A stretch of 64,000 nt of DNA from an uncultured Alphaproteobacteria bacterium (GTDB taxonomy: Bacteria; Pseudomonadota; Alphaproteobacteria; Methylaequorales; Methylaequoraceae). Below the pieces are notes generated by a model that was not told where the DNA came from, made no database searches, and saw only the letters and a program-made list of their open reading frames with translations. Every line of letters begins with the position of its first letter. The stretch's first letter is position 1. The stretch lies in assembly GCA_902563505.1 (NCBI GenBank), contig CACEXK010000003.1, positions 19,076 through 83,075 of the forward strand, given 5' to 3'. This document shows positions 1 through 18,240 of the stretch, one piece after another. Made by a program: the position numbers and the translations under genes.

Positions 1-77
1 ACCAATTTTCGAAAGTATTTCAGTCTTAGCCGCCATTTTTCACCTACTTAATTTAAACGACTAAAACGAAGCTTCAT

Positions 78-1643
78 TTACTGGAATAATACCAGAACAT
101 TTTGCATCGTTCTTGACGCTTGAGCAACCATATTCATAGCAGATTGTTGAAGAATTTGAGATTTGGACAGATTTGCTGATTCTAAAGCAAAATCTGCATC
201 AACGATCCTTGCTCTTGATGCTCTTTGATTTTGAGACACGTTAGTTAAATTATCTATCACAACATTCATTCTACTCATAATTGCACCAAATTTTGCTCTT
301 TCCATATGAATTCTATCAAGTGCTCTATCAACCACTTTAAGTGCGTCAACCGCACCAGTTAGGGTTCTAAGGTCAATTGTCGAAACTTTGTTAAGAGTTG
401 CAGCACCTGGACTAGCATCATATAATCCTCCACCGGCATTACCAACAATGGTAAAAGTCTGAGAGGAATGAAATTTAAGTTGTCCTGCAAATCTGATTGA
501 GTCACTATTACCACTATTGTGATCTTCATCCAATACATTTTTTGCTGTGCCTTCGACATCTTGATCCATATTCATTGCTGTACATATCATTTTAGTGGTA
601 ATTGCGTTACCTACACTTGCAAAATTAAGATTTTGAATTGCGATATCTTCTCCTTCATCTTGAACCATAATTATATTTGATCTGTCAGCACTTAAAGTAC
701 ATCTAATTCCAGTTGTTCCTGTATATGCATTAAGTTGATCTCTCAAATTAGTTAGATCTGAAGTTGCTGCGGTTGTACCTAGGGTAACGGTTGCAGAAAT
801 TGCTTGTTTCGAGGCATTCTTACCAAAAATATCAAAACCAACAACATGATTTCCAGCCGCAGCCGTGCTTAGCATTTCAATCTTGACTGTTGTCATTGCA
901 GTTGCACTAACTCCTGTTTTGTCAAATTTAGCATTAACTAATTCAACTATTTCTTTAGCCGTGTTGTTATCAGCGATGTTTATCGTTGAAGTACCAACCA
1001 AACCCGTAATTGTAATATTATCATCAGCATCAATTAAACTATTAATTCCAGCCGCAGTTCCACCTGTGGTACCCTCAGCAGCCAAACTATTTGCTGAGCC
1101 TGCAGATTCTTTGACTTCTGTTTCACTTTGATAAGCTCCAAGGTTATCTGTTCTTAAGTTTGCTACTGAAATAACGGCTTTTTCTCTTTCATTGGAACCA
1201 ATCTGAAAGCGTCTATCAGCAAATGTTCCATCAAGAACCGCAATTTCATTAAAAGTAGTATCCCTGGCAACCCTATCCATTTCTTCTAACAATTGGTTTG
1301 CTTCGGTTTGTAAATAAATTCTTTGTTCAGCATTTAAGATGTCGGTAGCAGCTTGGATTGACAATTCACGAATTCTTTGGAGAGCTTGGGAGTGTTCGTC
1401 TAGTGCACCTTCGGCTACTTGAGCCATTGATAAAACATCAGCAGCATTTCTAATTGACATGTCAAGTGCTCTGATGGTTGCTGTCATTCTGTCACTGATG
1501 GCTGCTCCTGCAGCGTCGTCACCAGCACTATTAATTCTTTTACCTGAGGAGATTCGCTCCATTGCACGAAGCATATCCCTTTCAGTTTTAAGGAGACTCT
1601 TCATTGAAGCTGAAGTTCCCATGCTTGTATTTATTCCCGGCAT
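78..1643 (-). CDS. fliC: Flagellin, long form (521 aa)
   Basis: The N-terminus (...RISSGKRINSAGDDAAGAAISDRM...) and C-terminus (...RIVDADFALESANLSKSQILQQSAMNMVAQA...) are canonical flagellin D0/D1 helices. The central ~250 aa form a T/S/G/A/N-rich variable domain that contains a flagellin-IN-like segment. Confidence 0.93.
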   Translation of the reverse strand: MPGINTSMGTSASMKSLLKTERDMLRAMERISSGKRINSAGDDAAGAAISDRMTATIRALDMSIRNAADVLSMAQVAEGALDEHSQALQRIRELSIQAATDILNAEQRIYLQTEANQLLEEMDRVARDTTFNEIAVLDGTFADRRFQIGSNEREKAVISVANLRTDNLGAYQSETEVKESAGSANSLAAEGTTGGTAAGINSLIDADDNITITGLVGTSTINIADNNTAKEIVELVNAKFDKTGVSATAMTTVKIEMLSTAAAGNHVVGFDIFGKNASKQAISATVTLGTTAATSDLTNLRDQLNAYTGTTGIRCTLSADRSNIIMVQDEGEDIAIQNLNFASVGNAITTKMICTAMNMDQDVEGTAKNVLDEDHNSGNSDSIRFAGQLKFHSSQTFTIVGNAGGGLYDASPGAATLNKVSTIDLRTLTGAVDALKVVDRALDRIHMERAKFGAIMSRMNVVIDNLTNVSQNQRASRARIVDADFALESANLSKSQILQQSAMNMVAQASRTMQNVLVLFQ

Positions 1644-1689
1644 CTTATATTCTCTCTGTTAAATTCATATAATTTTCCGAAAGAAATTC

Positions 1690-1705
1690 TGCAAATTAAG
1701 TGCCA
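1690..1705 (-). promoter_or_regulatory. Sigma-54 (RpoN) -24/-12 promoter for the long flagellin gene
   Basis: The minus strand reads TGGCAC-TTAAT-TTGCA, a full match to TGGCAC-N5-TTGCW. The C of the -12 GC is at 1691, which predicts a TSS near 1679 and a ~36-nt leader before the ATG at 1643. Confidence 0.8.
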
Positions 1706-1742
1706 AAAAAAAAGGAGAGAGTAAAAAAAACTCTCTCCTTTT
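1705..1742 (-). terminator. Rho-independent terminator after the 265-aa flagellin gene
   Basis: An 8-bp stem, GGAGAGAG (1714-1721) paired with CTCTCTCC (1731-1738), has a 9-nt loop. On the minus strand it is followed by a run of 9 U (plus-strand A9 at 1705-1713). Confidence 0.8.
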
Positions 1743-1767
1743 AAAACATACTATATGTAGTGGTTCG

Positions 1768-2565
1768 TTATTGTAAAACCGCCAATATAGCTGATTGTGC
1801 ATTATTTGCTTGAGCAGCCATTGACAAAGCAGCCTGGTTTAAAATGGCGTTTTTAGTCAAATCTGCTGTTTCAAGAGCAAAGTCAGTGTCTATAATTCTA
1901 GCACTTGCAGCTGCCATGTTAGCTGAAGTAGCAGAGGCAGCACCCTGAAATGCTTTTAAGGCTGTTAAGTCAGCAGCAATGTTTCCTAATGCTTCTGCAA
2001 CCTTTCCGAGCATTGTTTTTGCCGTAGCATCTGCACCAGCAGCTGTTGAAATACCAGCCATCTGAGTAATTGCAATGTTTGGACCTACAGCAGTAGTGTT
2101 TGCAGTAAGACCGGCATAAGCAACGTTTTTCTGTAATGCAGCGTTAGAGTCTACAACTGGAACTTCGTTGAAGTCCGTATTGTCTAACAATGCATCGATT
2201 GCATCACCAATTGCAGCTGCTTCTGAGTTAAGTGCAGCAATTTGGTTACTATCTAAAAGCGCAGCATTATCCGCTGCGATTCCAAGTTCGTGCAATCTTA
2301 TACCCATGTTTGCAACTTCTAAAAGAACACTTTCACCCATCTGAGCGAATGAAATACCGTCTTCGATATTCCTAGTTGCAGTAGCGTAAGATTTACTCAT
2401 TGCATTTAGTGCTTGACCTGCTGAGTGACCAGCAGCATCACCACCATACATAGCTCTTACGCCTGTTGATAATCTAGCAATGGACTCATTCATACCGTGT
2501 CGAGCTTTACTAGCTGCGGCAGCGGCCATATTAGCGCCAATTGCAATATTAGAAACTGAAGGCAT
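1768..2565 (-). CDS. Short flagellin (265 aa, D0/D1 only), tandem paralogue 1
   Basis: The N-terminus (...MNESIARLSTGVRAMYGGDAAG...) and C-terminus (...RIIDTDFALETADLTKNAILNQAALSMAAQANN...) are flagellin-like. The size matches short alphaproteobacterial flagellins. An AAAAGGAGATAA Shine-Dalgarno region precedes the ATG. Confidence 0.88.
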   Translation of the reverse strand: MPSVSNIAIGANMAAAAASKARHGMNESIARLSTGVRAMYGGDAAGHSAGQALNAMSKSYATATRNIEDGISFAQMGESVLLEVANMGIRLHELGIAADNAALLDSNQIAALNSEAAAIGDAIDALLDNTDFNEVPVVDSNAALQKNVAYAGLTANTTAVGPNIAITQMAGISTAAGADATAKTMLGKVAEALGNIAADLTALKAFQGAASATSANMAAASARIIDTDFALETADLTKNAILNQAALSMAAQANNAQSAILAVLQ

Positions 2566-2590
2566 TTTTTATCTCCTTTTCTTTGTTATT

Positions 2591-3394
2591 CTATTGAATA
2601 ACGGTTAATATTGCCTGCTGCGCATTGTTCGCTTGCGCGACCATAGCCATTGCAGACTGATTTAATATTGCGGCTTTTGTCAAATTAGCCGTTTCAAGAG
2701 CATAGTCCGTATCCTGAATTCTAGCAGCAGCAGCTTTTAAGTTAGCCGAAGAGGAAGCAGCCACAGCTTGGAATCCCTTAAGTGCAGACATACCAGCGGC
2801 AACCTTACCAAGTGAATTGGCAACATTACCTAGTGCAGAATCCGCACTACCGTCAACACCACTTGCTCCGGTAATTTTGTCTGTGTTTTTAATATCAATT
2901 GTCGTTGCAGTACCAACTGTGAAAGTTCCACCTTGGTCATCAACACCAATTGCCACAGCACCACCAGCAGCAACCGAGCCAACTAATTGTACTCCGTTAA
3001 ATTTGACGTTATCAGCTATACCATCGATTGCTTTACCAATGGCAGTTGCTTCAGAGTTTAGAGCTGCTCTGTCAGAATCCGTCATTAATTGAGTATTCGC
3101 AAATTGAATACCTAATTCACGCAATCTGGTAGTTAAAGCAGCAATTTCAAGCAACAAAGATTCTGCTGATTGAAGAAATGAAATACCGTCTTCGCAATTC
3201 CTTGCTGCAACGGCAAAACTTGCCCCTCGTGCCCCTAATGAATTAGCAATTGCCTGACCAGCAGCATCACCGCCATACATTGACCTGATACCAGTGGATA
3301 ACCTTGCAATTGATTCATTCATCTGGTGACGTGCCTTTGAAGCGGCAGCGCCAGCCATAGCTGCACCAACGGCGATATTAGAAACTGAAGGCAT
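2591..3394 (-). CDS. Short flagellin (267 aa, D0/D1 only), tandem paralogue 2
   Basis: Same architecture as 1768-2565. The termini are nearly identical (MPSVSNIA.GA.MA.AAASKARH.MNESIARLSTG...; ...DTDYALETANLTKAAILNQSAMAMVAQANN...). Only 25 nt separate it from the downstream paralogue, so the two are probably co-transcribed. Confidence 0.88.
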   Translation of the reverse strand: MPSVSNIAVGAAMAGAAASKARHQMNESIARLSTGIRSMYGGDAAGQAIANSLGARGASFAVAARNCEDGISFLQSAESLLLEIAALTTRLRELGIQFANTQLMTDSDRAALNSEATAIGKAIDGIADNVKFNGVQLVGSVAAGGAVAIGVDDQGGTFTVGTATTIDIKNTDKITGASGVDGSADSALGNVANSLGKVAAGMSALKGFQAVAASSSANLKAAAARIQDTDYALETANLTKAAILNQSAMAMVAQANNAQQAILTVIQ

Positions 3395-3583
3395 GTTATC
3401 TCCTTTTGTAAATCATTAACATACAGTTTATATCCATCAACTTGATGTCCATTAACCTAATTACTGTAATAGATAACGACTTGCCGTAAAAATGTTTAGT
3501 CGATGTTGTAATAAAACATAATGATTATTAGAATGGATTGGGGATGTTGATTTATAAAAAAAAAATATATATAAATATTTCAA

Positions 3584-4093
3584 ATGGCAACTGAGAAATT
3601 ATACTGCCCAGAATTTGTCTACCAGATTTGTGTGGGTCTCACAGTCTATGATTTTGTAACCAAAGAATTTACTTTACCTATGGTTTCAAAACAATATGCG
3701 TCGGGTATAAGTGATCATTATAATGAGGTTTTACCTGAGGAACTCAGTTTTCCTGCTGAAGAAATTCTTCGTTTTATGTCTGAACAACAAAAGCCAAAAT
3801 ACGAAGCACACGAAAAGGCAAATTTCTTTGTATACAATCAATTAAAATTTGATGGGACAAAGGGTGAAAGAAAACTTAAGGGGATATTTGGTAACGCTTT
3901 TAGCGGTGAAAAAACAAAAAAATATAATGCTGAAAAAACTATAAAGGTTTTTAAAGCATTTACATTTTCTTTAAGATCAGGTGCAGTTGATCGTGCTCCA
4001 GCAGGTTGGTTGATAAAAAGTGAGAATAAAGAAGATTTACTTCAACTTGGGGATATTATTACTAAAGAAATGAAAATCGACGATCTACTTTAA
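3584..4093 (+). CDS. Hypothetical protein (169 aa) embedded in the flagellar locus
   Basis: A clean ORF on the opposite strand to all surrounding flagellar genes. I recognise no motif. Its stop overlaps the flgL stop within the tetranucleotide TTAA (4090-4093). Confidence 0.5.
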   Translation: MATEKLYCPEFVYQICVGLTVYDFVTKEFTLPMVSKQYASGISDHYNEVLPEELSFPAEEILRFMSEQQKPKYEAHEKANFFVYNQLKFDGTKGERKLKGIFGNAFSGEKTKKYNAEKTIKVFKAFTFSLRSGAVDRAPAGWLIKSENKEDLLQLGDIITKEMKIDDLL

Positions 4094-5373
4094 GATATCA
4101 TATCAAAAAGATTCAATTGAGAAATTCTCACAAAAGCTTTTTGAGATGCTTCTTGAGATGTCATCATTGATTGGAGTTCGGTTACTAGTTCAGATAAATC
4201 TGCGTCAGCTAATTCACTAACATCTTTTTCAACCAGGATTTTTCTCTCAAGCATAATATCACTCTGTCTTTCAACAGAATTCATTCTGGCTCCAACCTTA
4301 GCCCTCTGATTGGCAAGATGATTTTGTATGACTCGCATTTCATCTAACCTACTTGCAATAGTTTGGTCAAAATCAAAAACAGTTTGCTGTCTACCAATAC
4401 CATTTCCAGCAGCATCAATTGGTTGAACTGTAAAAAATGATGTAGGTGTTTCTTGAGATTTAGAAATGTTTGGTATTTCTAACTTACCTAATTCAATGTC
4501 ATAGGCGTAATCACTTACTAACTTAAGAGTTTTATTTGAATCCTCAAGCGTTGCAGTAATATCAAGATCAGCTGCATTAATTGCTGTTGCAACATCTGAT
4601 AAATCACTACCTGTTATATCCAGTGAAAAATCTGCAGACTTTGATCCAGATGTAACTGTAAAAGCGTATGTTCCAGGATCTTGATTGGTTAGAGTGATTT
4701 TAGCCATACCTGTTCCTGCTTTAGCTGCTTCGACACCAGCATTTGCCGTTCTTATCGAGCGACTAATATTATCGACCGCTGCAAATAGATCTGTACTAAC
4801 TCCAGAACTAGTAACAATGTCTTGAAAAACTGTGGCTCCATCTATAGTAGATTCCATTAATCTACTTTCAGAAATCTGAAGATTTAAAACTCCACGATCA
4901 CCTTTGTATTCAATTTCACCTGCTGCATTTACAATGAAAGGTTGAGTTTTAGATTTATAACCCGCGTATATGTAACTCCCTCCAGAATCTTTAGTGTTAG
5001 AAATTGACATCAATTCCTTTTTTAATTCATCAAATTCCAATGCAATTGCCTCTCTATCAACAACCGATAAAACATCATTAGCTGCTTGAATAGCTAATTC
5101 ATTACATCTCGTAAAAATATCTTTGGCTCCTTGGATTGTTGCATCCATTAACTTTAATCTATCAAGTGCAAGATTCGTATTATCAAGAAATTGATCAATC
5201 CTACTGGTAACATCTTTTAAACCAGAAAGTTCAACTGCTCCAACAGGGTCATCAGATGCAAAAACAATATTTTTTCCCGATGAAATCTTGGCTTGAATAC
5301 CTTGTATATCCTCCATATTTTTAGAGAATTGTCTTACCTGCTGGTCATTAAATAGCCGATTACTTATTTTCAT
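4090..5373 (-). CDS. flgL: Flagellar hook-associated protein 3 (hook-filament junction), 427 aa
   Basis: The N-terminus (MKISNRLF...QAKISSGKNIVFASDDPVG) and a flagellin-like C-terminal helix are present, and the gene sits directly after flgK. It is longer than enteric FlgL (~317 aa) because of a central insertion with an IN-like segment (LSDVATAINAADLDITATLED...). Confidence 0.88.
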   Translation of the reverse strand: MKISNRLFNDQQVRQFSKNMEDIQGIQAKISSGKNIVFASDDPVGAVELSGLKDVTSRIDQFLDNTNLALDRLKLMDATIQGAKDIFTRCNELAIQAANDVLSVVDREAIALEFDELKKELMSISNTKDSGGSYIYAGYKSKTQPFIVNAAGEIEYKGDRGVLNLQISESRLMESTIDGATVFQDIVTSSGVSTDLFAAVDNISRSIRTANAGVEAAKAGTGMAKITLTNQDPGTYAFTVTSGSKSADFSLDITGSDLSDVATAINAADLDITATLEDSNKTLKLVSDYAYDIELGKLEIPNISKSQETPTSFFTVQPIDAAGNGIGRQQTVFDFDQTIASRLDEMRVIQNHLANQRAKVGARMNSVERQSDIMLERKILVEKDVSELADADLSELVTELQSMMTSQEASQKAFVRISQLNLFDMIS

Positions 5374-5383
5374 AACTTAAATT

Positions 5384-5399
5384 AGCAAATTTCGTGCCT
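5384..5399 (-). promoter_or_regulatory. Sigma-54 -24/-12 promoter in front of flgL
   Basis: The minus strand reads AGGCACG-AAAT-TTGCT, with only the first T of TGGCAC mismatched and the extended G after CAC also matching. The C of the -12 GC is at 5385, exactly 12 nt before the A of the flgL ATG (5373). Confidence 0.7.
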
Positions 5400-5447
5400 A
5401 GTCCTTAATTTCTTGTAAAACCCTTGAATTAGATCATTCAATTTTTA

Positions 5448-8400
5448 TTATTTTGATACTACCATCATTAATGATTCAAATAGTTCTCTTGCAGTTTGAA
5501 TAATTCTCGCGTTAGCTGAAAATGCTTGTTGAAACTGAATCAATGCTGCAGCTTCCTCATCTAAAGAAACCCCTGCACTTTCATCTTCTTTAGCTTTAGC
5601 TTCATCCAAGGATGCTTGTGCATCCTCAACACTCAACTGGCTACTTCTTACATTTGAACCAATTTCAGCAGCAGTTGCATTGAAAATATCCTGAAAACTT
5701 CCTGAGTTAATTCCGTTAACATCAGCCTCTTGTAAATCTATCATTTGAAGAATATTTCTATTATCTCCAACACCATCATTATTATTTGTTATGGAAAATG
5801 AATCTTTAACTGATGCCTCACCTACTAATCTCAATGTTTTGCCAGAAGCCGTGATAATTCCGCTATCAGGAATGAGTCGTGTTGCAATTGAATGATTTGT
5901 ATCTGCATCTAAAATCTCGACTTTTTTATTATTATCAGAGTCTATTACTAACTTAAGTTCTGATGTTTCTTGAGGTGGTAAAATTTCACCATAGTTTGAT
6001 GCAATTTTCTTTGAACCATTCCCTGTCATTACAATTATCAAATCCTCTGGAGGCAGATTAGAAATAGATAAATTGTTTCCAATTAATGATTTTACACTAT
6101 TTGCTGGAACCCCAATATTAACTGCTTTTGAAGCTTTTGCATCTGAAGCAAATGATTGAACTCTGATTGAATCGTCAATAACATTTACATGAGTTTGATT
6201 AGTTTTAAAACCGAAGCTTTCGGACCAAGTTCCATTAGAAGCATATTTTGGGTTTTCCATTACAATCTGACCTTTGTCTGCTTGTTTTACAATTGAAATT
6301 TGCATCTTTCCATCACTCACTTGCTCTAATTCAATCGAAATACCTAAGTTAGTTACAGGTGATCCCCCAGGAAAATCATCATTATAGATAGCACCAACAA
6401 CGCTTGTAAATTTATCACTTGCATGTCCTCCACTACCGCCAATTGTCATAGTTACTGGAGTATCAGCAGTAGCGTTAGCATAAGATGATGCAAGTTTAAA
6501 TGTATTTGCACCGGTTACTACTGCGAAATAGGAAGCGTCATTGCTAAGTCCATTTAATGCCGAAGATGTATCATAATGAAGTTTATCTCCAGTTTTAAAA
6601 CCATGAGCGTTAGCTGTAATTTGGTTTGCTGAAACAGCTGAGGTTGTATTCACTGTACGAGTATTACAACTTAAACCTATGTCATAAGGTTTTTCACGAC
6701 CGTAAGTAAAATGCATATGAGTTGTTGAAACTGCAGGTGTTGCACCAGACACAGTCAGATTATTGATTTCTGTTCCAGTAATTGTTGTTGAAACTTCATC
6801 CGGTTCCATTCCAAATAATTTTGCATTTTCATCATTGGTAGTATCAACTGCAAATGAAAATTGAGACGCTGATATAGTTTTTCCAGCAGATATGTAAAGA
6901 CTTTTGCCAGGATCAAAAGTATCAGCACTGTTACCACCTATATTACCAGTACCAATTGTAAGAACTGATGGCGTATCATTTGTAGCTAAGGTATAAGAGC
7001 TTGCTAGTTTAAAATTGTGATCGTCAACCTTTACAGCATAATATGTTTCTCCATCAACCAAACCTGCTCTCGGACTTGAAAATGAATCGGACACACTTCC
7101 TCCAGAACTTCCGGTAATGGTTATGGCTGTACCTGAACCAGCATTTCCGCTAGTCGTAGCCAGCTTGAATGAATTAGCATCAACTGCTATGGCAAAATAT
7201 GTTGTCCCACTTGTTAACCCAGATATAGGAATTGAACTTCCAGCTTTGTAAACAACTGGGTCTTGTGTAGAAAAACCATGGTTTGGAGCGGTTATCGTAA
7301 CAGTTGAATTAAACTGAGTTGTATCTACTATTACCTTCTCAGCAGCATTATAAACCACAGCATCGCCTGTTTCTAGTCCATGCTCAGTCGATGGTATTGT
7401 TTGAGTTCCGTTAAGTGAAGTTGTATTTATTGTAATTGGATCAGGGTCATCAAAATATGCATTCAACAAATTTTTCTCACCCCCAGATACGACCACCTCA
7501 CCATTTTCCATTGTCAATGTATAAGTTAAACCATCATGATTAACTTTAAAACTTGAGCCATCAATTGGAATAGATGCTATAGATTTACCAGAAATTTCAA
7601 TAGAAGGACTATCTGCTCTGAGAGCCTCAGCTATTTTTTTAGAAACTTCACCTGTAGATAAATCATCAAAAGCTGAAACATCTACAGTTGTGCCAAACGC
7701 AGAACCAGTATCAGTTGCTGGAAGAGTCAAACCATAAGAAACTATAGAACTATTTGAGGACAAACCATCCGGGTGTCCAGCTGAAAAATCACCATCAAGT
7801 ACAAGTGGCTTAATTGTTTTAATCTCACCTGTGGAAGAAGTCGTAACATTTAAAAAACCATCTTTGAATGCATTTTGTGTTGCCGTGACTGTTGTACTTC
7901 CTCCATCATTAGAAGTTGTGATTGCAGAAGAAGATTCTATTTGCAATTCACCACTAAGTCTTGCAGCCTTATAACTATTTCCATCTAGATCAACTGTGAC
8001 TGGTGAGGAAAAACTTGAAAAATCACTTTTCAAAACCTCTAGAGTAATTGGGTGCGTGAATTTGTCTGTTGCGCTGCCTCCTGAACCACCAACAGTTATT
8101 GCAGTTCCAGACTTGGCATTTGCCAATGAACTGGCAAGCTTAAAATTATTATCATCTTGATAAATCGCATAATATGTTTGTCCATTTGTAAGGTTTCCGA
8201 GTGCTGTCCCTCCAGCTGTATAAATAACTTTATCCCCAGTACTAAACCCATGAGAAGTATAAGGTATTGTAACACTAGCACTGCTTCCTAAGCCAGTTGT
8301 GTTCTTTGTCAAGGTATCTGAAGTTGAAAAATTTGAAATTTGGATATCATCACCATCTTTGTTTTCTAGGATTAGATGTGATTTGTCACTTGAAAGAATT

Positions 8401-10832
8401 GCAGTTACACCTGTTTTTCCTGAAAAATTATTAATAGCATTAGATAAGTTAGTCAGATTAGTTGATAAAACTGAAGCACTGATGCTTGCATCGTTATTTA
8501 CCCCACTCTTACTTTTTAATGAAAATGAAATTGTCCCGCTTAAATTTGGAGGAAAAAATTTAACTCTTGAAATAGCGTTTGCTTCAACACCTAAAGAAGA
8601 TGCATTTTCATTAATTAATTTTGCAACATAACCAGCTGATGATTCAATTGGTACCGAAATATCTTTAGACTTTCCTGTTGATGTAGAATTTACAGTTAGT
8701 GTATATGCGGCCGCAACATGACTTGCAGGAATTTCAGTTGCAGCTCTTTGAGCGCTGGCTAAAGCTCCATTTGCTCCGTAACTTATAATATAATTACCAG
8801 ATGTTGTTGATCTTGAGATATCTATACCTCTATATTTTTCTGTTCCAGTACCATTCAAGTAGTCCGCTCGATACTCTAATGATTGAGAAAAACCATTTTC
8901 TTCTGTAAGATACTCTGCAACTTCTGCATCAGTAAGAACTGTTCCAGCCAAATGTCTTCCTTCACGAGTAAAAATTTGCATTTGACTCGCAACTGTAATT
9001 GATGGGTTTGTGACATTACCGTTAATTGTTGTTCCAGATGTAATAGCGCCTGAGGAAAATTGTTTATTATTACTTGCAATCGTTAAAGTTGATCCTCCCC
9101 CGGCAGCAAAAAGGCCCATTGATCTAAAACTATGATTGTTTCCTTGAACATCTCTACTTCGGTTTAAAACATCAGCTAATTCCTCTATTGTAGTAACTCC
9201 AGTTAAATCAACAGTTACTGATGATGAATCAGCCATTGTAACTCTAATGCTAGTTGCAGATGTAATATCGGTGGCCGACAATCCAAATTGCAATTGAGGT
9301 TGACTCTGGTATGAGCTTAAATTAACGAATGATGCTCCCGCAGGAATTACAGCAGCGCCCCCATCAGTCGAAAACTGAGAGGCTGTTACCGGACTTAAAC
9401 CATTCGAAAAAACTGAGTCGATATTTTTAAGTGTGGTTTTGTCTTTTTGATTTATCAAAGCCATTTCTTCTAACTTGGCTGAGCCTATGTTACTAGAGCT
9501 TGCGCTTATCAAAGTTGTGGCTGCAGCTGCTATGTCTTGCGGTCTTGTTAAAAGAAAATCCATCCCTTTTGCAGGACTGGTTGGAACAATTGAAAATTCA
9601 TCGCCATCTAGTGCATTCCCATAAAATGAAAGTTTAAATCCTTCTGTTTCTAGAATCTCCCTTCCAACAACTGGCTCTTCCAGAGTTGGAGCAGTTAAAG
9701 TCCAAACATTTTCCTTTTGATTATAAATCACATTATAATTTTGACTCGTAACTTTCTCGGGATCGGTAACAAAAACTGCTACCCCAACATTTGATCGATT
9801 GGTTGGATTTTCAACAGCTTCTAAACTAGAAACCGTAAACATTTGTTTTCCTTTTTTTCCGTCAAGATTCAGACCAGACATGTTAATTTCATTAAATTTT
9901 TGTGATAATAATGTGGCTAAACTATCTATTTCATTGAGTGTATCATCAGCCAATGCATAAGAGTCCACTAGACCTGCAATAATTCCACCTTGGATTTGAT
10001 TGGTTGCAGTATTACCGGCCCCAACTGTAGCTTGTAATCTTGATCCTCTTTTAAGAACATCTATGTCAGTTGTTGTATTTCCAACCTTTGATGCAGATGT
10101 ATCTGCTTCAACAATTACTGGGCCTGAGCCTGTATTTCCTAACCTAATTTCAGCAGCTCCTTTGTTTATGTAAGAAACAGAAATTTGAGCTACTGCTGAC
10201 AACTGATCTATTAAAACATCTCTTTGATCTAATAATGCATTTGAACTATTTCCTGCACCACCAGAAGCGAGTAATTTTGAATTGATTGTTGAAATTTGTT
10301 TTGTAAGTAAATTTACCGATGTAACTGCATTTTTTGATTTATCAAAAATTTTATCTTTTAAATTATCTATTCGGGTTGCATATAAGTTAAATTGTCCAGC
10401 TAAATCTTTGCCTTTTTCTATAGCAATAATTCTAGGTGCTTGATCATCGGGAGCTGCTGCTATCTGTTGCAATGAATTAAAAAAATCACCTATTGCACTA
10501 CTTAAATTTGCATCACTAGGTAATAATAAATTTTCTAAATCCTTCACCTCTTGCATATAAGAGTCAGCTTTTTCAAACAATGATGAAGTTTGTCTTACTT
10601 TATCTGTCAAAAATTGATCAAATGCTCTTTTTATATCTTCAACTCTGACACCCAGACCCGTTTGATCTGAAATCTCTGTGACTCCTCCTCCAGCTCCAGA
10701 AACCTCCTGAAGACTTGTCTCTCTTTTTTTATATCCATCAGTATTTATATTTGCAATATTCTGCCCTGTTACTGCTAATGATTGCCTGTAAGCCTGAAGT
10801 CCACTTTTACCTATGTCAAATAAACTTGGCAT
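5448..10832 (-). CDS. flgK: Giant flagellar hook-associated protein 1 (1794 aa)
   Basis: The N-terminus (MPSLFDIGKSGLQAYRQSLAVTGQNIANINTDGYKKRE) and C-terminus (...VSLDEEAAALIQFQQAFSANARIIQTARELFESLMMV) are canonical FlgK terminal helices. The gene lies between flgJ and flgL. About 1100-1200 extra residues sit in the middle. Confidence 0.9.
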   Translation of the reverse strand: MPSLFDIGKSGLQAYRQSLAVTGQNIANINTDGYKKRETSLQEVSGAGGGVTEISDQTGLGVRVEDIKRAFDQFLTDKVRQTSSLFEKADSYMQEVKDLENLLLPSDANLSSAIGDFFNSLQQIAAAPDDQAPRIIAIEKGKDLAGQFNLYATRIDNLKDKIFDKSKNAVTSVNLLTKQISTINSKLLASGGAGNSSNALLDQRDVLIDQLSAVAQISVSYINKGAAEIRLGNTGSGPVIVEADTSASKVGNTTTDIDVLKRGSRLQATVGAGNTATNQIQGGIIAGLVDSYALADDTLNEIDSLATLLSQKFNEINMSGLNLDGKKGKQMFTVSSLEAVENPTNRSNVGVAVFVTDPEKVTSQNYNVIYNQKENVWTLTAPTLEEPVVGREILETEGFKLSFYGNALDGDEFSIVPTSPAKGMDFLLTRPQDIAAAATTLISASSSNIGSAKLEEMALINQKDKTTLKNIDSVFSNGLSPVTASQFSTDGGAAVIPAGASFVNLSSYQSQPQLQFGLSATDITSATSIRVTMADSSSVTVDLTGVTTIEELADVLNRSRDVQGNNHSFRSMGLFAAGGGSTLTIASNNKQFSSGAITSGTTINGNVTNPSITVASQMQIFTREGRHLAGTVLTDAEVAEYLTEENGFSQSLEYRADYLNGTGTEKYRGIDISRSTTSGNYIISYGANGALASAQRAATEIPASHVAAAYTLTVNSTSTGKSKDISVPIESSAGYVAKLINENASSLGVEANAISRVKFFPPNLSGTISFSLKSKSGVNNDASISASVLSTNLTNLSNAINNFSGKTGVTAILSSDKSHLILENKDGDDIQISNFSTSDTLTKNTTGLGSSASVTIPYTSHGFSTGDKVIYTAGGTALGNLTNGQTYYAIYQDDNNFKLASSLANAKSGTAITVGGSGGSATDKFTHPITLEVLKSDFSSFSSPVTVDLDGNSYKAARLSGELQIESSSAITTSNDGGSTTVTATQNAFKDGFLNVTTSSTGEIKTIKPLVLDGDFSAGHPDGLSSNSSIVSYGLTLPATDTGSAFGTTVDVSAFDDLSTGEVSKKIAEALRADSPSIEISGKSIASIPIDGSSFKVNHDGLTYTLTMENGEVVVSGGEKNLLNAYFDDPDPITINTTSLNGTQTIPSTEHGLETGDAVVYNAAEKVIVDTTQFNSTVTITAPNHGFSTQDPVVYKAGSSIPISGLTSGTTYFAIAVDANSFKLATTSGNAGSGTAITITGSSGGSVSDSFSSPRAGLVDGETYYAVKVDDHNFKLASSYTLATNDTPSVLTIGTGNIGGNSADTFDPGKSLYISAGKTISASQFSFAVDTTNDENAKLFGMEPDEVSTTITGTEINNLTVSGATPAVSTTHMHFTYGREKPYDIGLSCNTRTVNTTSAVSANQITANAHGFKTGDKLHYDTSSALNGLSNDASYFAVVTGANTFKLASSYANATADTPVTMTIGGSGGHASDKFTSVVGAIYNDDFPGGSPVTNLGISIELEQVSDGKMQISIVKQADKGQIVMENPKYASNGTWSESFGFKTNQTHVNVIDDSIRVQSFASDAKASKAVNIGVPANSVKSLIGNNLSISNLPPEDLIIVMTGNGSKKIASNYGEILPPQETSELKLVIDSDNNKKVEILDADTNHSIATRLIPDSGIITASGKTLRLVGEASVKDSFSITNNNDGVGDNRNILQMIDLQEADVNGINSGSFQDIFNATAAEIGSNVRSSQLSVEDAQASLDEAKAKEDESAGVSLDEEAAALIQFQQAFSANARIIQTARELFESLMMVVSK
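6402..8252 (-). repeat. Protein-level repeat modules (~68-70 aa) inside FlgK
   Basis: The pattern is HGF.TGD.v.Y....(5-8)..GL..G..Y(Y/F)A(I/V)......FKLA(S/T)S...A..(G/D)T(A/P).(T/I)..G.GG...D.F. Full copies lie at 8049-8252 (aa 861-928), 7071-7280 (aa 1185-1254) and 6402-6605 (aa 1410-1477). Half-units lie at 7281-7382 (aa 1151-1184) and 6906-7070 (aa 1255-1309). Confidence 0.85.
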
Positions 10833-11140
10833 TATTTAACAACCTTTCCTTTACTAAATTGCCTAACTAAGGCTTCAGCAATCCCAAAGTTTTGACCTTG
10901 AGAAATTGTTTTCGAATATTCTTGATCTAAAAGAGATTGATAAGTTTCTGTACCTTTATTTGAAAAAATACCATCTGATAGTTTTGCATTTCTAGCATTC
11001 TTGAGCATTTGAAAAACAAATAAAGATTCGAATTCTTGAGCAACTTCTTCTAGAGAAGTATCTTGATTAAATTTATTTTTTTTATTTTGAATATGATCAT
11101 CAAGATGGAATTTCGTGTTATTAAGTGGATAGTTTTTCAT
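10832..11140 (-). CDS. flgJ: Rod-binding protein (FlgJ N-terminal domain only, 102 aa)
   Basis: It has the rod-binding pattern (...EFESLFVFQMLKNARN...YQSLLDQEYSKTIS...GIAEALVRQF) and sits between flgI and flgK. There is no muramidase domain. Its stop shares one nucleotide with the flgK ATG (TAATG). Confidence 0.8.
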   Translation of the reverse strand: MKNYPLNNTKFHLDDHIQNKKNKFNQDTSLEEVAQEFESLFVFQMLKNARNAKLSDGIFSNKGTETYQSLLDQEYSKTISQGQNFGIAEALVRQFSKGKVVK

Positions 11141-11152
11141 TTTGATCTATTC

Positions 11153-12283
11153 CTAAATAATTATAAGTTCAGCTCTTAGAGAACCAGCCTCCCTTAATGC
11201 CTCAAGAATAGCAACCATATCAGTTGCTGTTGTGCCTGTTTCATTTAAAGCATCAACAAGAGTCTGCAATTGAATTCCTGGATCAAAGACAAAGGCTCTA
11301 GCAGGTTGTTGATCAACTTCTATTTGTGTATCTGCAGCAGTCGTTGCAGCGGTTCCCGCAACAGTTGCTGATGTTCCAACCACAGTTCCGGTTCCTTCTG
11401 ATAGTAATTTTGTATCTTCTTGAATTTTTACACTCAAACTTCCATGGGCAACTGCAGCTGGTGAAATTCTCACATCACCACCAATTACTACTGTGCCAGT
11501 TCTTGAATTAACTACAACCTTTGCTTTTGGACTAACAGGTTCAAAATTAACATTTTCAAGTAATCCAATAAAAGAAACTTTTTGAGATGGATTAGTAGGT
11601 GTTCTTACTTTTATAGAAGTTGAATCAAGTGGAACCGCTACATCAGGACCAAAGGTTTCATTAATTGCCTCAGCAATATTATCTGCCTGAGAGAAATCTG
11701 CTTGGTGAAGGTTTAAAACTATATTGTCTTTTTCTAAAAAACTATTTTCAACCAACTTTTCAACTGTTGCACCACCAGGAATTCTTCCAACAGTTGGAGT
11801 TCCTTGAATTGTACTTGAGCCATCTGCCCCTTCAATTCCAAGTCCACCCACGACTAAGTTTCCTTGAGCAATTGCATATACTTCACCATCAGCTCCTTTC
11901 AAAGCTGTCATTAACAAAGTTCCACCCTTTAATGATTTTGCTTTTCCTATTGTAGAAACTGTAATATCTATCGTCTGACCAGGTTTTGCAAAAGGAGGAA
12001 GGTTTGCAGTGACCATAACATTCGCTGCATTTGTCGCATCAATGTCAGAGGTAGCAGCAATTACACCAAACTGCGAGACCATTGCAGCAATACTTTGCTT
12101 TGTTAAATTTACACTTCCATCACCAGTCTTAGCTAAACCAATAACTAGACCATAACCAACAAGTTGGTTTGATCTAACTCCAGCCACAGACGCCATATCT
12201 TTTATTCTATCGGCAAATGCAATATCGCTGACAAATAAAATTAGTAAAAAATATAAAACTTTTATTCTATTTTTCATAAGCAT
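11153..12283 (-). CDS. flgI: Flagellar P-ring protein
   Basis: A signal peptide is followed by [31 protein letters not shown], and the C-terminus reads ...[21 protein letters not shown]. Confidence 0.95.
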
Positions 12284-12975
12284 TAAAAAGGCGATACATA
12301 AGCAAAGTATCTACCTAACCATCCTCTTGTTACACTATCATTCATATCACCAGTGCCAGTGTAAGATATTTGAGCATCGGCAACTTTAGTTGATGAAACT
12401 GAGTTTGATGAGGAAATATCTTCAGGTCTTATTACACCAGACACTCTGATGTATTCAGTGCCGCTGTTATAAGATAATTTTCTTTCTCCTTTTACTTCTA
12501 AATTACCATTAGGAAAAACTCTAACCACAGTCACTGAAATTGTACCAGTCAAACTGTTAGCCTGAGCTGCAGTTCCTGTTCCAGTGAAAGCTTGCGTAGT
12601 TCCACCCCTTAAATTATCCTCTTTAACTCCCCCTGGAAATAAAAATTTCCCTATGAAAGAGCTTGGCCCGAAGATTGCCTCTGGTAAGTCAAATGTATAC
12701 GAGTCTGATTTAGACAAAGTTTCTGATCCAGAATTTGCTGCGCTTAAATTTTCCTCAAGCGTAACTGTAATGATATCACCAACATTATTCGCGCGTCTGT
12801 CAGACGCAAATAATCCACCATTTCCAGTATATACTGCTCCTTCAGAAGTTGCATTTTTTGGTTCAAAATTAGTAAAATCAGGTTGAATACTTTTAAATTC
12901 CTGCCCAACCTTATTTTCCATATAACTTGCGCATCCAAAAAGAGGTAGTAAAAATATAATTAAAATAAATCTCAT
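12283..12975 (-). CDS. flgH: Flagellar L-ring lipoprotein
   Basis: It has a lipobox (LFGC) and FlgH core motifs ([19 protein letters not shown]..., ...[19 protein letters not shown]). Confidence 0.93.
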
Positions 12976-12983
12976 ATATTCAC

Positions 12984-13772
12984 CTATAGATTGCTATTAA
13001 CAAATCTTAACATTTCATCAACTGAGGTGATTGCTTTAGAATTGACCTCGTAGGCTCTTTGAGTTTCAATCATATCAACTAATTCTTGAACCACATTAAC
13101 ATTTGAAGCTTCAAGCGAGCCTTGAACTAATTTTCCAAAACCAGCATTAAATGGGTTTTCAAGAACAGGAGGGCCACTTGCTGGAGTTTCAACATAAAAG
13201 TTTTCTCCTACAGGTTGAAGTCCGTTTCTATTTTGAAAATCTGCAAGCTGAAGCTGTCCAACTTCCTGAGCATCAACCTGACCAGGAACTTGAACTGAAA
13301 TAATACCATCAGAAGATACATTTATTTTTGTCGCCTCTGCAGGTATTGCAATTTCTGGTTGAATTATAAAACCACTATTTGTTGTGAGGATGCCTTCATC
13401 ATTTCTAGAAAATGCTCCATTTCTAGTATAAACAATCTGTCCATCAGGAAGTAAGACTTGGAAGAAGCCACCTCCGTCAATTGCTAAATCAAGAGAGTTA
13501 TCAGTTGAAACAATTGGTCCTTGAGAATGAAATTTGTTTGAGTTTACAATGCTTACTCCAGTTCCAACGGAAAAACCGGAAGTTAATTCTGTATCAACAG
13601 AAGTTTGAGCGCCACTACTTCTAATTATTTGATAAAGTAATGATTCAAAATTTGCTCTATCTCTTTTAAATCCATTTGTATTAACGTTGGCTAAATTGTT
13701 TGAAATTATCTGCATTCTTACTTGTTGGGCATTTAACCCAGTTTTCGCAACATGCATCGCATTTATACTCAT
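12984..13772 (-). CDS. flgG: Flagellar distal rod protein
   Basis: The N-terminus is MSINAMHVAKTGLNAQQVRMQIISNNLANVNTNGFKRDR and the C-terminus is ...LEASNVNVVQELVDMIETQRAYEVNSKAITSVDEML. At 262 aa the size is typical of FlgG. Confidence 0.93.
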   Translation of the reverse strand: MSINAMHVAKTGLNAQQVRMQIISNNLANVNTNGFKRDRANFESLLYQIIRSSGAQTSVDTELTSGFSVGTGVSIVNSNKFHSQGPIVSTDNSLDLAIDGGGFFQVLLPDGQIVYTRNGAFSRNDEGILTTNSGFIIQPEIAIPAEATKINVSSDGIISVQVPGQVDAQEVGQLQLADFQNRNGLQPVGENFYVETPASGPPVLENPFNAGFGKLVQGSLEASNVNVVQELVDMIETQRAYEVNSKAITSVDEMLRFVNSNL

Positions 13773-13808
13773 TTTATCCTCTTTCTTAGCTAGATTTTCC
13801 AGATAAAC

Positions 13809-13824
13809 TGCAAACCTTGTGCCA
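13809..13824 (-). promoter_or_regulatory. Sigma-54 -24/-12 promoter for flgG (flgGHIJK[L] operon)
   Basis: The minus strand reads TGGCAC-AAGGT-TTGCA, a full consensus match. The predicted TSS is near 13798. The ~26-nt leader contains an AAGAGGA Shine-Dalgarno before the ATG at 13772. Confidence 0.8.
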
Positions 13825-13870
13825 TAAAAATTAAATTATAAAAGACTATTTTTTTTGTTTTTCAAATATT

Positions 13871-14344
13871 ATGATTAAGAATGAATTGATAACTATACTG
13901 GGGGGTATTATGCAAAAACTTGATTCAAAAAAAACAATCAATATTTTAAATGAAATTTTAAAATATGAACTTGCGGGTGTAGTGAAGTATACTCATTTTG
14001 CACTAATGGTGACTGGTCCTAATAGAATTACCCTTGATAAGTTTTTTAAAGAACAAGCAGAAGAATCTTTGGAGCATGCTCAGGCAGCCGGTGAATTATT
14101 GACTGGGCTTGGGGGTCATCCTGAACAAACCATTCCTAATATAGAAGAAACTAATCAGCATTCTGTTAAAAATCTTCTTATGGAAAGCTTACACCATGAG
14201 GAAAAAGCTGTTTCACTTTACAAAGATTTACTTGATTGCTCTGAAAACAAAAGTTTATATGTTGAAGAATATTCAAGAGAAATGATTAAACAAGAGGAAA
14301 TGCATAGTGTTGAGCTAAAAAAAATGCTAAGAGACTATAATTAG
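13871..14344 (+). CDS. Bacterioferritin-like (ferritin-like di-iron) protein
   Basis: A four-helix pattern carries di-iron ligand motifs (..YEL.., ..EESLEHAQ.., ..HHEEKAV.., ..EEMHSVEL..). The real start may be the internal Met at 13910 (MQKLDSKK...). Confidence 0.7.
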   Translation: MIKNELITILGGIMQKLDSKKTINILNEILKYELAGVVKYTHFALMVTGPNRITLDKFFKEQAEESLEHAQAAGELLTGLGGHPEQTIPNIEETNQHSVKNLLMESLHHEEKAVSLYKDLLDCSENKSLYVEEYSREMIKQEEMHSVELKKMLRDYN

Positions 14345-14356
14345 TTTCTCAGATGA

Positions 14357-15250
14357 ATGTTTTATAAATTTAGCTTTGTTCTTTTTATATTATTTTTCTT
14401 ATTATTAAGTTTTTATAATCCAGACTTATTAAGTTCCATAAAATCGCTAATACCAATCCTTTTAGGTATTGTGATGTTGGGAATGGGTTTGACAATCAAG
14501 TGGCTCGATATCAAAGAAGTTATATCAAAGCCAATCTGGATAACTGTTTCAGTTACACTTCAATTCGTTGTAATGCCAATCACCGCTTTTTTATTAACTA
14601 AGATTTTTGGGCTAAATAGTGAAATTGCGCTTGGTATTATAATTTTAGGATGTTGTCCTGGAGGGACTGCATCTAATGTAATAACATATTTATGTAATGG
14701 AAATGTCGCTTTATCTGTTATGAGCACACTTACTTCAACTTTACTATCAATAATATTCACTCCATTATTAATTTCTTTCATAGCCAATGAAAATATTCAA
14801 ATCAATACCTTAGAATTAATAAAGTCAGTCTTTCTTATTGTTTTTTTTCCCGTAACAGCAGGTTTATTAATAAATTTCTTTTTTAAAAATCTAGAAAATT
14901 TTATTAGATTTTTACCAAAGTTTTCTGAATTAATAATAGCACTTATAATTGGAATCATTATTTCCTTGAACTCAGAAAATATTATGAATATTCAAAACAA
15001 TCTAATCTTTTGTATTATACTGCATAATATAATTGGTCTTGTTGTTGGATATTTTTGTGCATCTTTGTTAAGTTTACCAAAAAATGTAAAAAAAACTATT
15101 TCAATTGAAGTAGGTATGCAAAACTCTGGTTTAGGTATGGCATTGGCTTTAATTCATTTTACAAAAGTCGTTGCTTTACCATCAGCTATTTTTAGTTTAT
15201 GGCACAATATTTCTGCTGTAGGGCTTGTTTATTTTTGGAAAAAAAAATAA
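14357..15250 (+). CDS. Bile acid:Na+ symporter (BASS) family transporter
   Basis: A polytopic membrane protein with the GCCPGGTASNV motif characteristic of the BASS/ACR3 superfamily. Confidence 0.8.
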   Translation: MFYKFSFVLFILFFLLLSFYNPDLLSSIKSLIPILLGIVMLGMGLTIKWLDIKEVISKPIWITVSVTLQFVVMPITAFLLTKIFGLNSEIALGIIILGCCPGGTASNVITYLCNGNVALSVMSTLTSTLLSIIFTPLLISFIANENIQINTLELIKSVFLIVFFPVTAGLLINFFFKNLENFIRFLPKFSELIIALIIGIIISLNSENIMNIQNNLIFCIILHNIIGLVVGYFCASLLSLPKNVKKTISIEVGMQNSGLGMALALIHFTKVVALPSAIFSLWHNISAVGLVYFWKKK

Positions 15251-15285
15251 ATTATAGTTTTAATTTTTCAAGAAAGGTCAATTAA

Positions 15286-15513
15286 ATGGAAATAAGTGCA
15301 AAAAATCAAATGAGAGGCATTGTAGCTTCTGTAATTCATGGATCTAGTTATTCACAAGTTGCTGTTGAACAATCAGATGCTGACGGAGTCACATCAGGGA
15401 GTTTTATTCACGCTGCTATTCCCGTAGATATTTGTAAAAAAATGGAATTATCTAAAGGTGATCATGTAACCTGTATTTTTCCAGCAGCAACAGTAATTCT
15501 TGCAAAGCATTAA
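15286..15513 (+). CDS. Mop/TOBE-domain molybdate- or tungstate-binding protein (75 aa)
   Basis: A single TOBE-like domain: EISAKNQMRGIVASVIHGSSYSQVAVE...AAIPVDICKKMELSKGDHVTCIFPAATVILAK. Confidence 0.7.
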   Translation: MEISAKNQMRGIVASVIHGSSYSQVAVEQSDADGVTSGSFIHAAIPVDICKKMELSKGDHVTCIFPAATVILAKH

Positions 15514-15531
15514 TTTTTTCCATAAAAAAAA

Positions 15532-16227
15532 GTGGAAATTATTTTAAAATCATTTGATCTGATTTTTTCATTTGATGATAGTTTATATGAAATAATTTTT
15601 TTATCTCTCAAAGTATCAATTCTAGCATTATTAATTTCAATTTTTCTTGGAATGCCAATATCAGCATTGCTAGCAATAAAAGAATTCTTTTTCAAGAAAA
15701 CATTGAAAATTTTTTTTAATTCAATGATGGCACTGCCACCAGTTTTTGTTGGTCTTTTTTTATATATTCTATTCTCTAAAAGTGGGCCCTTAGGTTTCTT
15801 TGAAATTTTATATACACCAATTATTATGGTTATCGCTCAAGTAATTATTATTCTTCCTATCATTGTATCAATTACAACTGATAAATTAGAAAGTATTTTT
15901 AATGAATATAAAGAATTATTTCATATTCTTGAAGCCAATGATTTTGATAAAATTCTGAGTGTTTTGTGGGATGCAAGATTTTCAATGCTCACATGTATTG
16001 TTGCTGGTTTAGGTAGAGCACTGTCAGAGGTCGGAGCCATAATAATTGTTGGAGGAAATATTATTCATTATACAAGAGTGATGACCACAACAATTGCTTT
16101 AGAAACATCAAGAGGAAATTTGACATTAGCAATGTCTTTAGGAATCATATTAATATTTATTGCATTAATTCTAAACTCATCTGCTTTAATTCTTAAATTT
16201 ATAGCAGTGAAGGCTAGTTATGAATAA
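15532..16227 (+). CDS. ABC transporter permease, tungstate (TupB)-like
   Basis: GTG start. About 5-6 TM segments. The EAA-type loop (GLGRALSEVGAIIIVGGNIIHYTRVMTTTIALETSRG) resembles anion (tungstate/molybdate) permeases. The Mop gene lies directly upstream. Confidence 0.6.
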   Translation: MEIILKSFDLIFSFDDSLYEIIFLSLKVSILALLISIFLGMPISALLAIKEFFFKKTLKIFFNSMMALPPVFVGLFLYILFSKSGPLGFFEILYTPIIMVIAQVIIILPIIVSITTDKLESIFNEYKELFHILEANDFDKILSVLWDARFSMLTCIVAGLGRALSEVGAIIIVGGNIIHYTRVMTTTIALETSRGNLTLAMSLGIILIFIALILNSSALILKFIAVKASYE

Positions 16228-16912
16228 AAAATTTATAATAAACCTAGAAAATATTAATCTAAGTATTTCAAATAAATTATTTTTTAAAAATCTTTCAATA
16301 AAGTTTTCTAATAAAGGTCTTTCAGTAATATTAGGTCCGAATGGTTCTGGAAAAACCCTTCTAACAAAAGTAATAAATGGAATGTTAAAAGTAGATAGCG
16401 GGAAGATTTCGTTTAAAAATAAAAGAATAAAAATTGGTTACTCACCTCAAAAAATTGTTTTTTTAAGAAGAACTGTTTTCGAAAATCTTTTATATCCAAT
16501 GAAAATCAAAAGATATAAAAATAAAAAAGCTATTGAAAGGGTAAATTTTCTTTTAAATGAATTTAAGATCTATGACAAAAAATATGTTTCAGCAAGGAGT
16601 CTGTCTGGAGGGCTTGCACAATATGTTTCTTTTATTAGATCAATTATAATAGATCCAAATATTTTGATCTTAGATGAGCCTTGTTCAAACTTAGACAATG
16701 ATTTTAAAAAAAAAATTGAAAAGTATTTAATGAAAGAAAAAAAATCAAAAAAAATTATTCTAGTGACTCATGATATTTTCCAAGCAAAGAGACTGGCTGA
16801 TGAAATTATTATGTTAAATGAAGGAAAATTGATAGAAAGTAGCCAAAAAGAATCTTTCATTAACTCAAGTAATCATTTAGTTAAAAGATTTTTATGCAAT
16901 AATATTTTGTAA
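16220..16912 (+). CDS. ABC transporter ATP-binding protein
   Basis: Walker A (GPNGSGKT), signature (LSGGLAQ) and Walker B (ILILDEP) are present. It overlaps the permease gene by 8 nt. Confidence 0.85.
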   Translation: MNKKFIINLENINLSISNKLFFKNLSIKFSNKGLSVILGPNGSGKTLLTKVINGMLKVDSGKISFKNKRIKIGYSPQKIVFLRRTVFENLLYPMKIKRYKNKKAIERVNFLLNEFKIYDKKYVSARSLSGGLAQYVSFIRSIIIDPNILILDEPCSNLDNDFKKKIEKYLMKEKKSKKIILVTHDIFQAKRLADEIIMLNEGKLIESSQKESFINSSNHLVKRFLCNNIL

Positions 16913-16951
16913 TATTATAAAGTATTATACAAAAAAACACTCACTCAATAA

Positions 16952-17915: not shown

Positions 17916-17977
17916 TTTTCAGGTTAGTTGCTAAGATAACTATGTTTATATATTATATTTACAAGAGGGAATAAAAA

Positions 17978-18079
17978 ATGGCAAAAAAAAAAAAGGTAAC
18001 TATCGATCCTAAAAAAGTCAAAAAGGAAGATCTACAAAATGTTTTTTCCAAAGTACTAGATAAACTCAAGTCTAGTTAG
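17978..18079 (+). CDS. Possible 33-aa lysine-rich small protein
   Basis: My own translation gives MAKKKKVTIDPKKVKKEDLQNVFSKVLDKLKSS. It is preceded by AGAGGGA about 8 nt upstream. It falls below the 60-aa cut-off of the supplied ORF track. Confidence 0.35.
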   Translation: MAKKKKVTIDPKKVKKEDLQNVFSKVLDKLKSS

Positions 18080-18084
18080 TAGTT

Positions 18085-18222: not shown

Positions 18223-18240
18223 AATGGCCATAAACTTAAT

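Follow-up and report, generated by a model that had tools for sequence, protein, structure and literature searches.

A giant FlgK combining a widely shared proximal scaffold with a lineage-specific distal cassette in an uncultured alphaproteobacterium

The 64,000-nucleotide stretch analyzed here (the window; positions 19,076 to 83,075 of contig CACEXK010000003.1 from an uncultured Alphaproteobacteria bacterium) carries on its minus strand a run of flagellar genes in the order flgG-flgH-flgI-flgJ-flgK-flgL, followed by three flagellin genes. The flgK coding sequence (CDS; 5448-10832(-)) extends from ATG to stop and encodes a protein of 1,794 amino acids (aa), with a mass of 187.5 kDa and an isoelectric point (pI) of 4.7. 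Given DNA of about 35% G+C, with the stop-codon frequency of AT-rich sequence, an open reading frame (ORF) of 1,794 codons with no internal stop is not open by chance. The start is also credible, since residue 1 pairs with residue 1 of Salmonella FlgK in the alignment and the ATG shares 1 nucleotide (nt) with the flgJ stop codon. The protein scored 262.1 bits against TIGR02492 (flgK_ends), whose curated equivalog cut-off is 170.75. Pfam matched, in the expected order, the rod-type N-terminal D0 motif PF00460 (aa 6-35), the helical domain PF22638 FlgK_D1 (aa 97-332, 160 bits) and the C-terminal helix PF06429 Flg_bbr_C (aa 1751-1788). The product is almost certainly FlgK (hook-associated protein 1, HAP1), the hook-filament junction protein. 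These data bear out three features put forward in the original prediction, namely the canonical flgJ-flgK-flgL position, the FlgK-type termini and a size about three times that of the enteric protein (1,794 aa versus 553 aa in Salmonella).

Alignment with Salmonella FlgK (PDB 9go6, 553 aa; PMC12221982), with which the D0/D1/D2 core is shared, located the additional residues in a single block. Residues 1-440 of the window protein correspond to Salmonella 1-440 and residues 1686-1790 to Salmonella 448-551, leaving an insert of 1,245 residues (aa 441-1685), directly after the D2 domain, where Salmonella has 7 (441-447). The N-terminal part of the core comprises the helical D0 and D1 regions (aa 1-340; 9813-10832(-)), recognized by PF00460, PF22638 and Foldseek and modeled with a predicted local distance difference test (pLDDT) of 75-93. 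It is followed by a D2-like beta domain (aa 341-440; 9513-9812(-); pLDDT 81-91), identified by a sub-threshold PF21158 match and by the Salmonella alignment, which extends to residue 440. The C-terminal D1 and D0 helices (aa 1691-1794 and the stop codon; 5448-5762(-)) match PF06429 and Salmonella 448-551. Serine, threonine, glycine, asparagine and alanine together make up 50% of the insert and 40% of the core; the protein is acidic, its insert is hydrophilic, and it contains one cysteine.

AlphaFold models were obtained for the two halves of the protein, with mean pLDDT values of 68 and 64, and represent the insert mostly as beta strand. Confident regions include the FlgK D1/D2 core, a beta domain at aa 510-610 and small beta domains at aa 845-925 and about 1075-1525, while aa 440-509, 612-706, 930-1061 and 1529-1735 were poorly modeled. 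In Foldseek searches, the N-terminal model matched 2d4y, 9go6, 9u4r, 4ut1 and 5xbj with E-values from 8.6e-21 to 1.4e-9 (about 1e-18 to 1e-19 for 9go6). The same search of the PDB with the C-terminal half returned nothing significant, the best hit being Uba1 at E=0.03.

Comparison with the long FlgKs of other bacteria, hereafter giant FlgKs, divides the insert into a proximal scaffold, common to all those compared, and a distal cassette that differs between lineages while its flanks are conserved. The scaffold consists of aa 441-842 together with a C-proximal part running from roughly 1500/1585 to 1690. Its first module (aa 441-842; 8307-9512(-)) is common to all giant FlgKs, including FlgK1 of Rhodobacter sphaeroides. 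The second (aa 1585-1690; 5763-6080(-)), which bears the motif LPPEDLI..TG.G, is conserved throughout the giant FlgKs, that of R. sphaeroides included, and extends to Porticoccaceae FlgKs of about 1,000-1,100 aa. Conservation within the insert peaks in the motifs ASxIQIFTREGRHIAG (615-630), within which FTREGRH occupies aa 621-627 of the first module, YRADYLN (654-660) and LPPEDLI..TG.G (near 1592-1606). The FTREGRH/YRADYLN region, like the C-proximal module, occurs already in Porticoccaceae, at a protein length of about 1,000-1,100 aa. The first module also contains a unit resembling Flagellin_IN (PF07196) at aa 769-826, which scored 19.6 bits when the whole protein was searched and 24.6 bits when a fragment was, the cut-off being 22.7. 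The stretch most conserved across giant FlgKs, FTREGRH...YRADYLN (aa 611-660; 8853-9002(-)), was modeled with a pLDDT below 50. It may form an inter-subunit contact that folds only within the assembled ring.

The distal cassette (aa 843-1584) holds four copies of a beta domain of about 85 aa with the signature HGFxTGDxVxY...GLxxGxxYYA...FKLAxS...G..I, one of which is nested in another. Copy 1 (aa 844-928; 8049-8303(-)) is contiguous, has a pLDDT of 78-89 and occurs in four of the seven members of the clade to which the window belongs (the window clade). A middle segment (aa 929-1135; 7428-8048(-)), common to some giant FlgKs (PS1, Nereida and others) and poorly modeled over aa 930-1061, separates it from the nested pair. 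This pair consists of the N-terminal half of copy 2 (aa 1136-1169; 7326-7427(-)), copy 3, a complete domain nested in a loop of copy 2 (aa 1170-1254; 7071-7325(-)), and the C-terminal half of copy 2 (aa 1255-1312; 6897-7070(-)). Copy 4 (aa 1395-1478; 6399-6650(-)) is again contiguous, with a pLDDT mostly of 69-92. Segment-versus-whole BLAST detected the three full copies in one another with E-values of 1e-16 to 2e-23, together with the two half copies. A hidden Markov model (HMM) of the repeat reproduced the nested arrangement, matching positions 1-29, then 1-84, then 35-81; the first and last of these ranges fall in the two halves of copy 2. Once rejoined, these halves can be aligned with the full copies over their whole length, and AlphaFold predicts for them the same strand-strand-strand-helix-strand order as in the other copies. 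The original prediction had described the extra residues as S/T/G/N/A-rich, beta-rich and internally repeated, a description that agrees with the composition, models and repeats reported here.

All seven clade members have the nested pair, which is the best-conserved part of the insert, with 86% identity to L003 and a ratio of nonsynonymous to synonymous substitution rates (dN/dS) of about 0.04. The block containing copy 1 (aa 841-928) is absent from three of the seven, which corresponds to at least two events on a neighbor-joining tree without support values.

No Pfam model matched the repeat. E1_FCCH (PF16190) was considered as its identity and set aside as a resemblance only: none of the four copies in the window matched it, relatives of the repeat scored 24.7-25.6 bits against a cut-off of 29.5, and the Uba1 structure was reached at E=0.03. 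Searches against PHROG matched the repeat region to phrog_38233 (E=4.5e-29, four stretches) and phrog_2885 (E=7.8e-27, three stretches), which are tail-fiber and baseplate-wedge families. With tblastn, the repeat matched tail-fiber genes of the Prochlorococcus phages P-HM2 and MED4-213, and Foldseek searches of BFVD returned cyanophage baseplate-wedge and fiber models with E-values down to 3.5e-14. In both sequence and predicted structure, the cyanophage proteins, such as the P-HM2 tail fiber and the baseplate wedge initiator of Synechococcus phage Bellamy, have the small beta domain in common with the window protein. The correspondence is at the level of the domain, as the phage proteins lack a FlgK core and belong to another assembly context.

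Giant flagellins, and also very large hypothetical proteins, contain the domain too. Among the FlgKs examined, it is confined to the window clade and one other lineage, represented by L012 and L029, where it lies at different positions; it was not found in R. sphaeroides FlgK1 or in the largest SAR116 FlgKs. The L012 and L029 FlgK ORFs (2,037 and 2,027 aa; labeled Rhodobacterales or SAR116) contain five copies of this phage-type domain. Their placement suggests that the domain was acquired or expanded independently in that lineage. In this distribution among FlgKs, the middle of a giant FlgK resembles the hypervariable region of flagellin, as a site at which surface domains are added and swapped.

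The integrity and conservation of the gene were assessed in independent assemblies. A nanopore/pilon contig from another sample (ENA ERZ28548090), 98% identical to positions 1-19589 of the window, aligns with all 5,385 nt of the flgK CDS at 98.3% nt identity with 8 gap columns, and this long-read check of the ORF revealed no chimera. The longest DNA repeat within flgK is 58 nt long and 72% identical. Collinear FlgK orthologues of 1,689-1,791 aa were found in six species-level genomes of the window clade (LRMED-289, AH-716-M15, AG-915-O07, AG-343-F10, AG-900-F16 and MED657), a set that includes single-cell assemblies, metagenome bins and one long-read bin; on a large scale they differ only in one block of 88 residues, which some have and others lack. 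In comparisons within the clade, the insert has a dN/dS of about 0.04-0.3, similar to the core, these being rough values since synonymous differences (pS 0.6-0.75) are saturated. The flgK ORF is a real gene kept by selection, and its insert is under purifying selection.

Many database entries named FlgK from the window clade are fragments of 280-1,100 aa. They are explained by frameshift errors in nanopore/pilon assemblies (L001, L002, L082) that split the gene, so length statistics drawn from such entries understate the size of FlgK. In one of these assemblies, from a relative whose FlgK is 44% identical (L002:2401-6230; ENA ERZ28548060, long-read), two adjoining FlgE-like gene calls were observed, the first of 767 aa with Flg_bb_rod, LlgE_F_G_D1 and FlgE_D2, the second of 394 aa with Flg_bbr_C. 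The pair looks like two pieces of one frameshifted hook protein, about 1,276 aa in length, and in that case enlargement may extend to the hook in some of these lineages.

To determine how widespread such proteins are, residues 441-1640 of the insert were searched against 1.84 billion representative proteins, giving 1,738 matches at E<=1e-3. The best 150 of these include at least 67 clusters (50% identity) that represent complete FlgKs possessing both ends; they measure 1,060-2,125 aa, the median lying close to 1,390. A scan across the genomes of GTDB species found giant FlgKs in dozens of species, reaching 2,474 aa. FlgK ORFs measure 1,620-2,474 aa in SAR116/Puniceispirillaceae, 1,412-1,429 aa in PS1, Parvibaculales and Rhodobiaceae, 1,335-1,459 aa in Rhodobacteraceae, 997-1,105 aa in Porticoccaceae and Cellvibrionales, and about 630 aa in other Gammaproteobacteria. 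Cultured Rhodobacteraceae are represented by Nereida ignava CECT 5292 (1,417 aa), Roseovarius mucosus DSM 17069 (1,335 aa), R. aquimarinus (1,338 aa) and IMCC1909 (1,445 aa). The length of 1,794 aa is typical for the window clade, and larger FlgKs exist elsewhere. The largest, from the SAR116 single-cell genome AG-892-O07 (L044:4674-12098, 2,474 aa), lacks the repeat of about 85 aa, and its extra residues, about 700, must be domains of other types.

The FlgKs of SAR116/Puniceispirillales, PS1/Parvibaculales and the Roseobacter group (1,335-2,474 aa, known from database annotations only) share the scaffold with the window protein (its aa 1-842 and about 1500-1794) at 31-48% identity, and have distal cassettes unlike its own. 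Giant proteins of this kind are routinely annotated as FlgK at NCBI; in the literature library searched, no paper was found to mention FlgK alongside SAR116, Puniceispirillum or the PS1 clade.

The closest described counterpart is FlgK1 of the Fla1 flagellum of Cereibacter (Rhodobacter) sphaeroides. The insert alone matches this protein (P0210, 1,363 aa) with E=2.5e-39, and the two full-length proteins are collinear, window residues 3-832 corresponding to 2-808 (30% identity, E=6e-85) and 1585-1789 to 1157-1360. Flagellin_IN-like units appear to occur in both. They share the same core, an insert at the same point after D2, and both scaffold modules, as window 441-832 corresponds to R. sphaeroides 431-808 and window 1585-1690 to 1157-1262. 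Overall identity is about 30%, and the window protein exceeds FlgK1 in length by 431 aa. Between the conserved modules, about 750 aa in the window protein face about 350 aa in R. sphaeroides; residues 833-1584 have no detectable similarity to FlgK1, which lacks the phage-type beta-domain repeats.

According to the account of Fla1 in a review (PMC7277832), electron microscopy of R. sphaeroides revealed a bulky HAP region, attributed to the 1,363-residue FlgK1 with its central region of 860 residues, in which at least three Flagellin_IN motifs and internal repeats were recognized. The same account, citing the deletion study as its reference 54, reports that deletions of 100 aa in this central region slow swimming and that two of them abolish it, with flagella of normal appearance. 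The original prediction knew of no equivalent description of a giant FlgK; FlgK1 provides one, including deletion tests. Proteins of this size and architecture are common, also among marine Alphaproteobacteria, as the clusters and species counted above indicate; they have been characterized for the family, through R. sphaeroides, and not for the lineage of the window. Giant FlgKs are thus already known, and the window protein joins that family with an unusual outermost part.

The giant flagellins of marine Gammaproteobacteria (Thomson et al. 2018, PMC6248924) follow the same principle of conserved helical termini around a very large exposed center, and some of them carry the beta domain of about 85 aa found in the window. 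They possess Flagellin_N and Flagellin_C termini and occur in thousands of copies along the filament, whereas the window protein has FlgK-type termini and an expected 11 copies at the junction. Its termini exclude membership in the giant flagellins, with which it has only the small domain in common.

Upstream of flgK, in the same operon-like run, flgJ (10832-11140(-)) encodes a protein of 102 aa that consists of the rod-binding domain only, without a muramidase domain, and flgI, flgH and flgG follow at 11153-13772(-). The FlgJ of the R. sphaeroides Fla1 system is likewise reduced to the rod-binding domain, and a separate enzyme cuts the cell wall. Downstream, flgL (4090-5373(-)) encodes 427 aa and scored 228 bits against TIGR02550, with a cut-off of 127.2. 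The three flagellin genes (78-3394(-)) encode proteins of widely different size, one of 521 aa with a Flagellin_IN motif and two minimal ones of 265 and 267 aa. Between flgL and the flagellins lies an ORF of 169 aa on the opposite strand (3584-4093(+)), which matched no Pfam or NCBIfam family, and an ORF of similar size was called at the equivalent position in the relatives L001 and L082. About 5 kb past flgG, genes for a Wzy_C O-antigen-ligase-like protein, a methyltransferase and a MORN-repeat protein were found at 18509-21141.

In Salmonella and Campylobacter, the hook-filament junction contains 11 FlgK subunits, and in the solved Salmonella junction the D2 domain is exposed to the medium (PMC12221982). 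Since the insert leaves the chain after D2, it would be displayed on the outside. The FlgK core of the window protein would assemble as usual, with 11 subunits between the hook and FlgL, and 11 copies of 187.5 kDa would surround the junction with an externally displayed collar of about 2.06 MDa. If the deletion phenotypes of R. sphaeroides are taken as a guide, the proximal scaffold (aa 441-842 and 1585-1690) probably braces the junction and carries motor load into the filament, and the distal cassette would most likely act as a spacer or as lineage-specific surface decoration. The enlarged junction that the original prediction expected from such a protein finds a parallel in the bulky HAP region that PMC7277832 describes for R. 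sphaeroides, whose FlgK1 has the homologous insert modules. We consider this overall picture, a mechanically bracing enlarged junction collar with lineage-specific surface decoration, to be reasonably likely.

Several observations weigh against it. The mechanical role would be carried over from one distant relative, at 30% identity, and the published deletions do not address the distal cassette, which has no counterpart in R. sphaeroides. AlphaFold confidence is poor precisely at the most conserved motifs of the insert (aa 612-706 and 1529-1735). Finally, Foldseek TM-scores to the phage proteins are low (about 0.1), a value explained by the match proceeding domain by domain along strings of domains and not over a global fold.

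Among the other readings, the cassette might be a ligand-binding or adhesive module, in which phage-fiber-type domains bind glycans or the surfaces of particles or algae and the filament base becomes a point of attachment. Its repeat domain is indeed common to phage tail-fiber and baseplate proteins and to the exposed regions of giant flagellins, and the nested pair is conserved like the FlgK core. Just 11 copies per flagellum, close to the cell, would however offer a poor geometry for adhesion, and the cyanophage proteins contain these domains in long rows, resembling structural spacers more than receptors at the tip. In addition, the insert matched no recognized carbohydrate-binding or adhesin family in profile searches, and most giant FlgKs, including the largest, do without the domain. 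We regard this reading as unlikely. The same low probability is given to the proposal that the cassette is a module exchanged among marine phage tail fibers, giant flagellins and FlgK, which would give the junction a ligand-binding or phage-interaction function with the nested pair as the functional tip. If that were true, whole domains gained and lost between sister species would be a sign of ongoing cell-surface selection in streamlined bacterioplankton.

Slightly less probable still is an arms-race surface that diversifies, like the flagellin hypervariable region, to evade or decoy flagellotropic phages or grazers. Such a role could account for a middle region that is lineage-specific between conserved flanks, for the patchy distribution of a whole domain (aa 841-928) among sister species, for the independent occurrence of the same domain family at other positions in the L012/L029 lineage, and for a domain in common with marine phages. 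Diversifying selection is nevertheless not apparent in a dN/dS well below 1 throughout, the least conserved segment reaching 0.18-0.31; next to the filament, the junction offers a very small target, and the patchiness was read from a tree that carries no support values. Anchoring or sealing of a flagellar membrane sheath by the enlarged junction, a suggestion of the original prediction to which the sequence lends no support, appears very unlikely, since the insert is acidic and hydrophilic (pI 4.7, one cysteine) and matched no membrane-related family, and since the description of the bulky HAP region of Fla1, with its homologous giant FlgK, in PMC7277832 mentions no sheath. An assembly chimera, or a fusion of FlgK to an unrelated gene, for which unusual length was the sole prompt, was rejected with negligible residual probability, given the long-read contig from another sample that matches along the full CDS, the collinear orthologues in six genomes of mixed assembly types, the absence of long DNA repeats from the gene, and the presence of both FlgK ends in the correct order.

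The window protein and its relatives place what seemed an oddity of R. sphaeroides within a large family spread through abundant marine bacterioplankton, spanning SAR116, PS1, the Roseobacter group, Porticoccaceae and the low-GC clade of the window. The occurrence of one domain in both phage tail fibers and flagellar surface regions is of smaller, separate interest. Across this family, the inserts form a graded series, about 370 to about 1,900 residues in size, with modules in common, providing natural variants for asking what the junction contributes mechanically. That streamlined genomes keep a junction gene of 5.4 kb under purifying selection suggests that the enlarged junction does real work.

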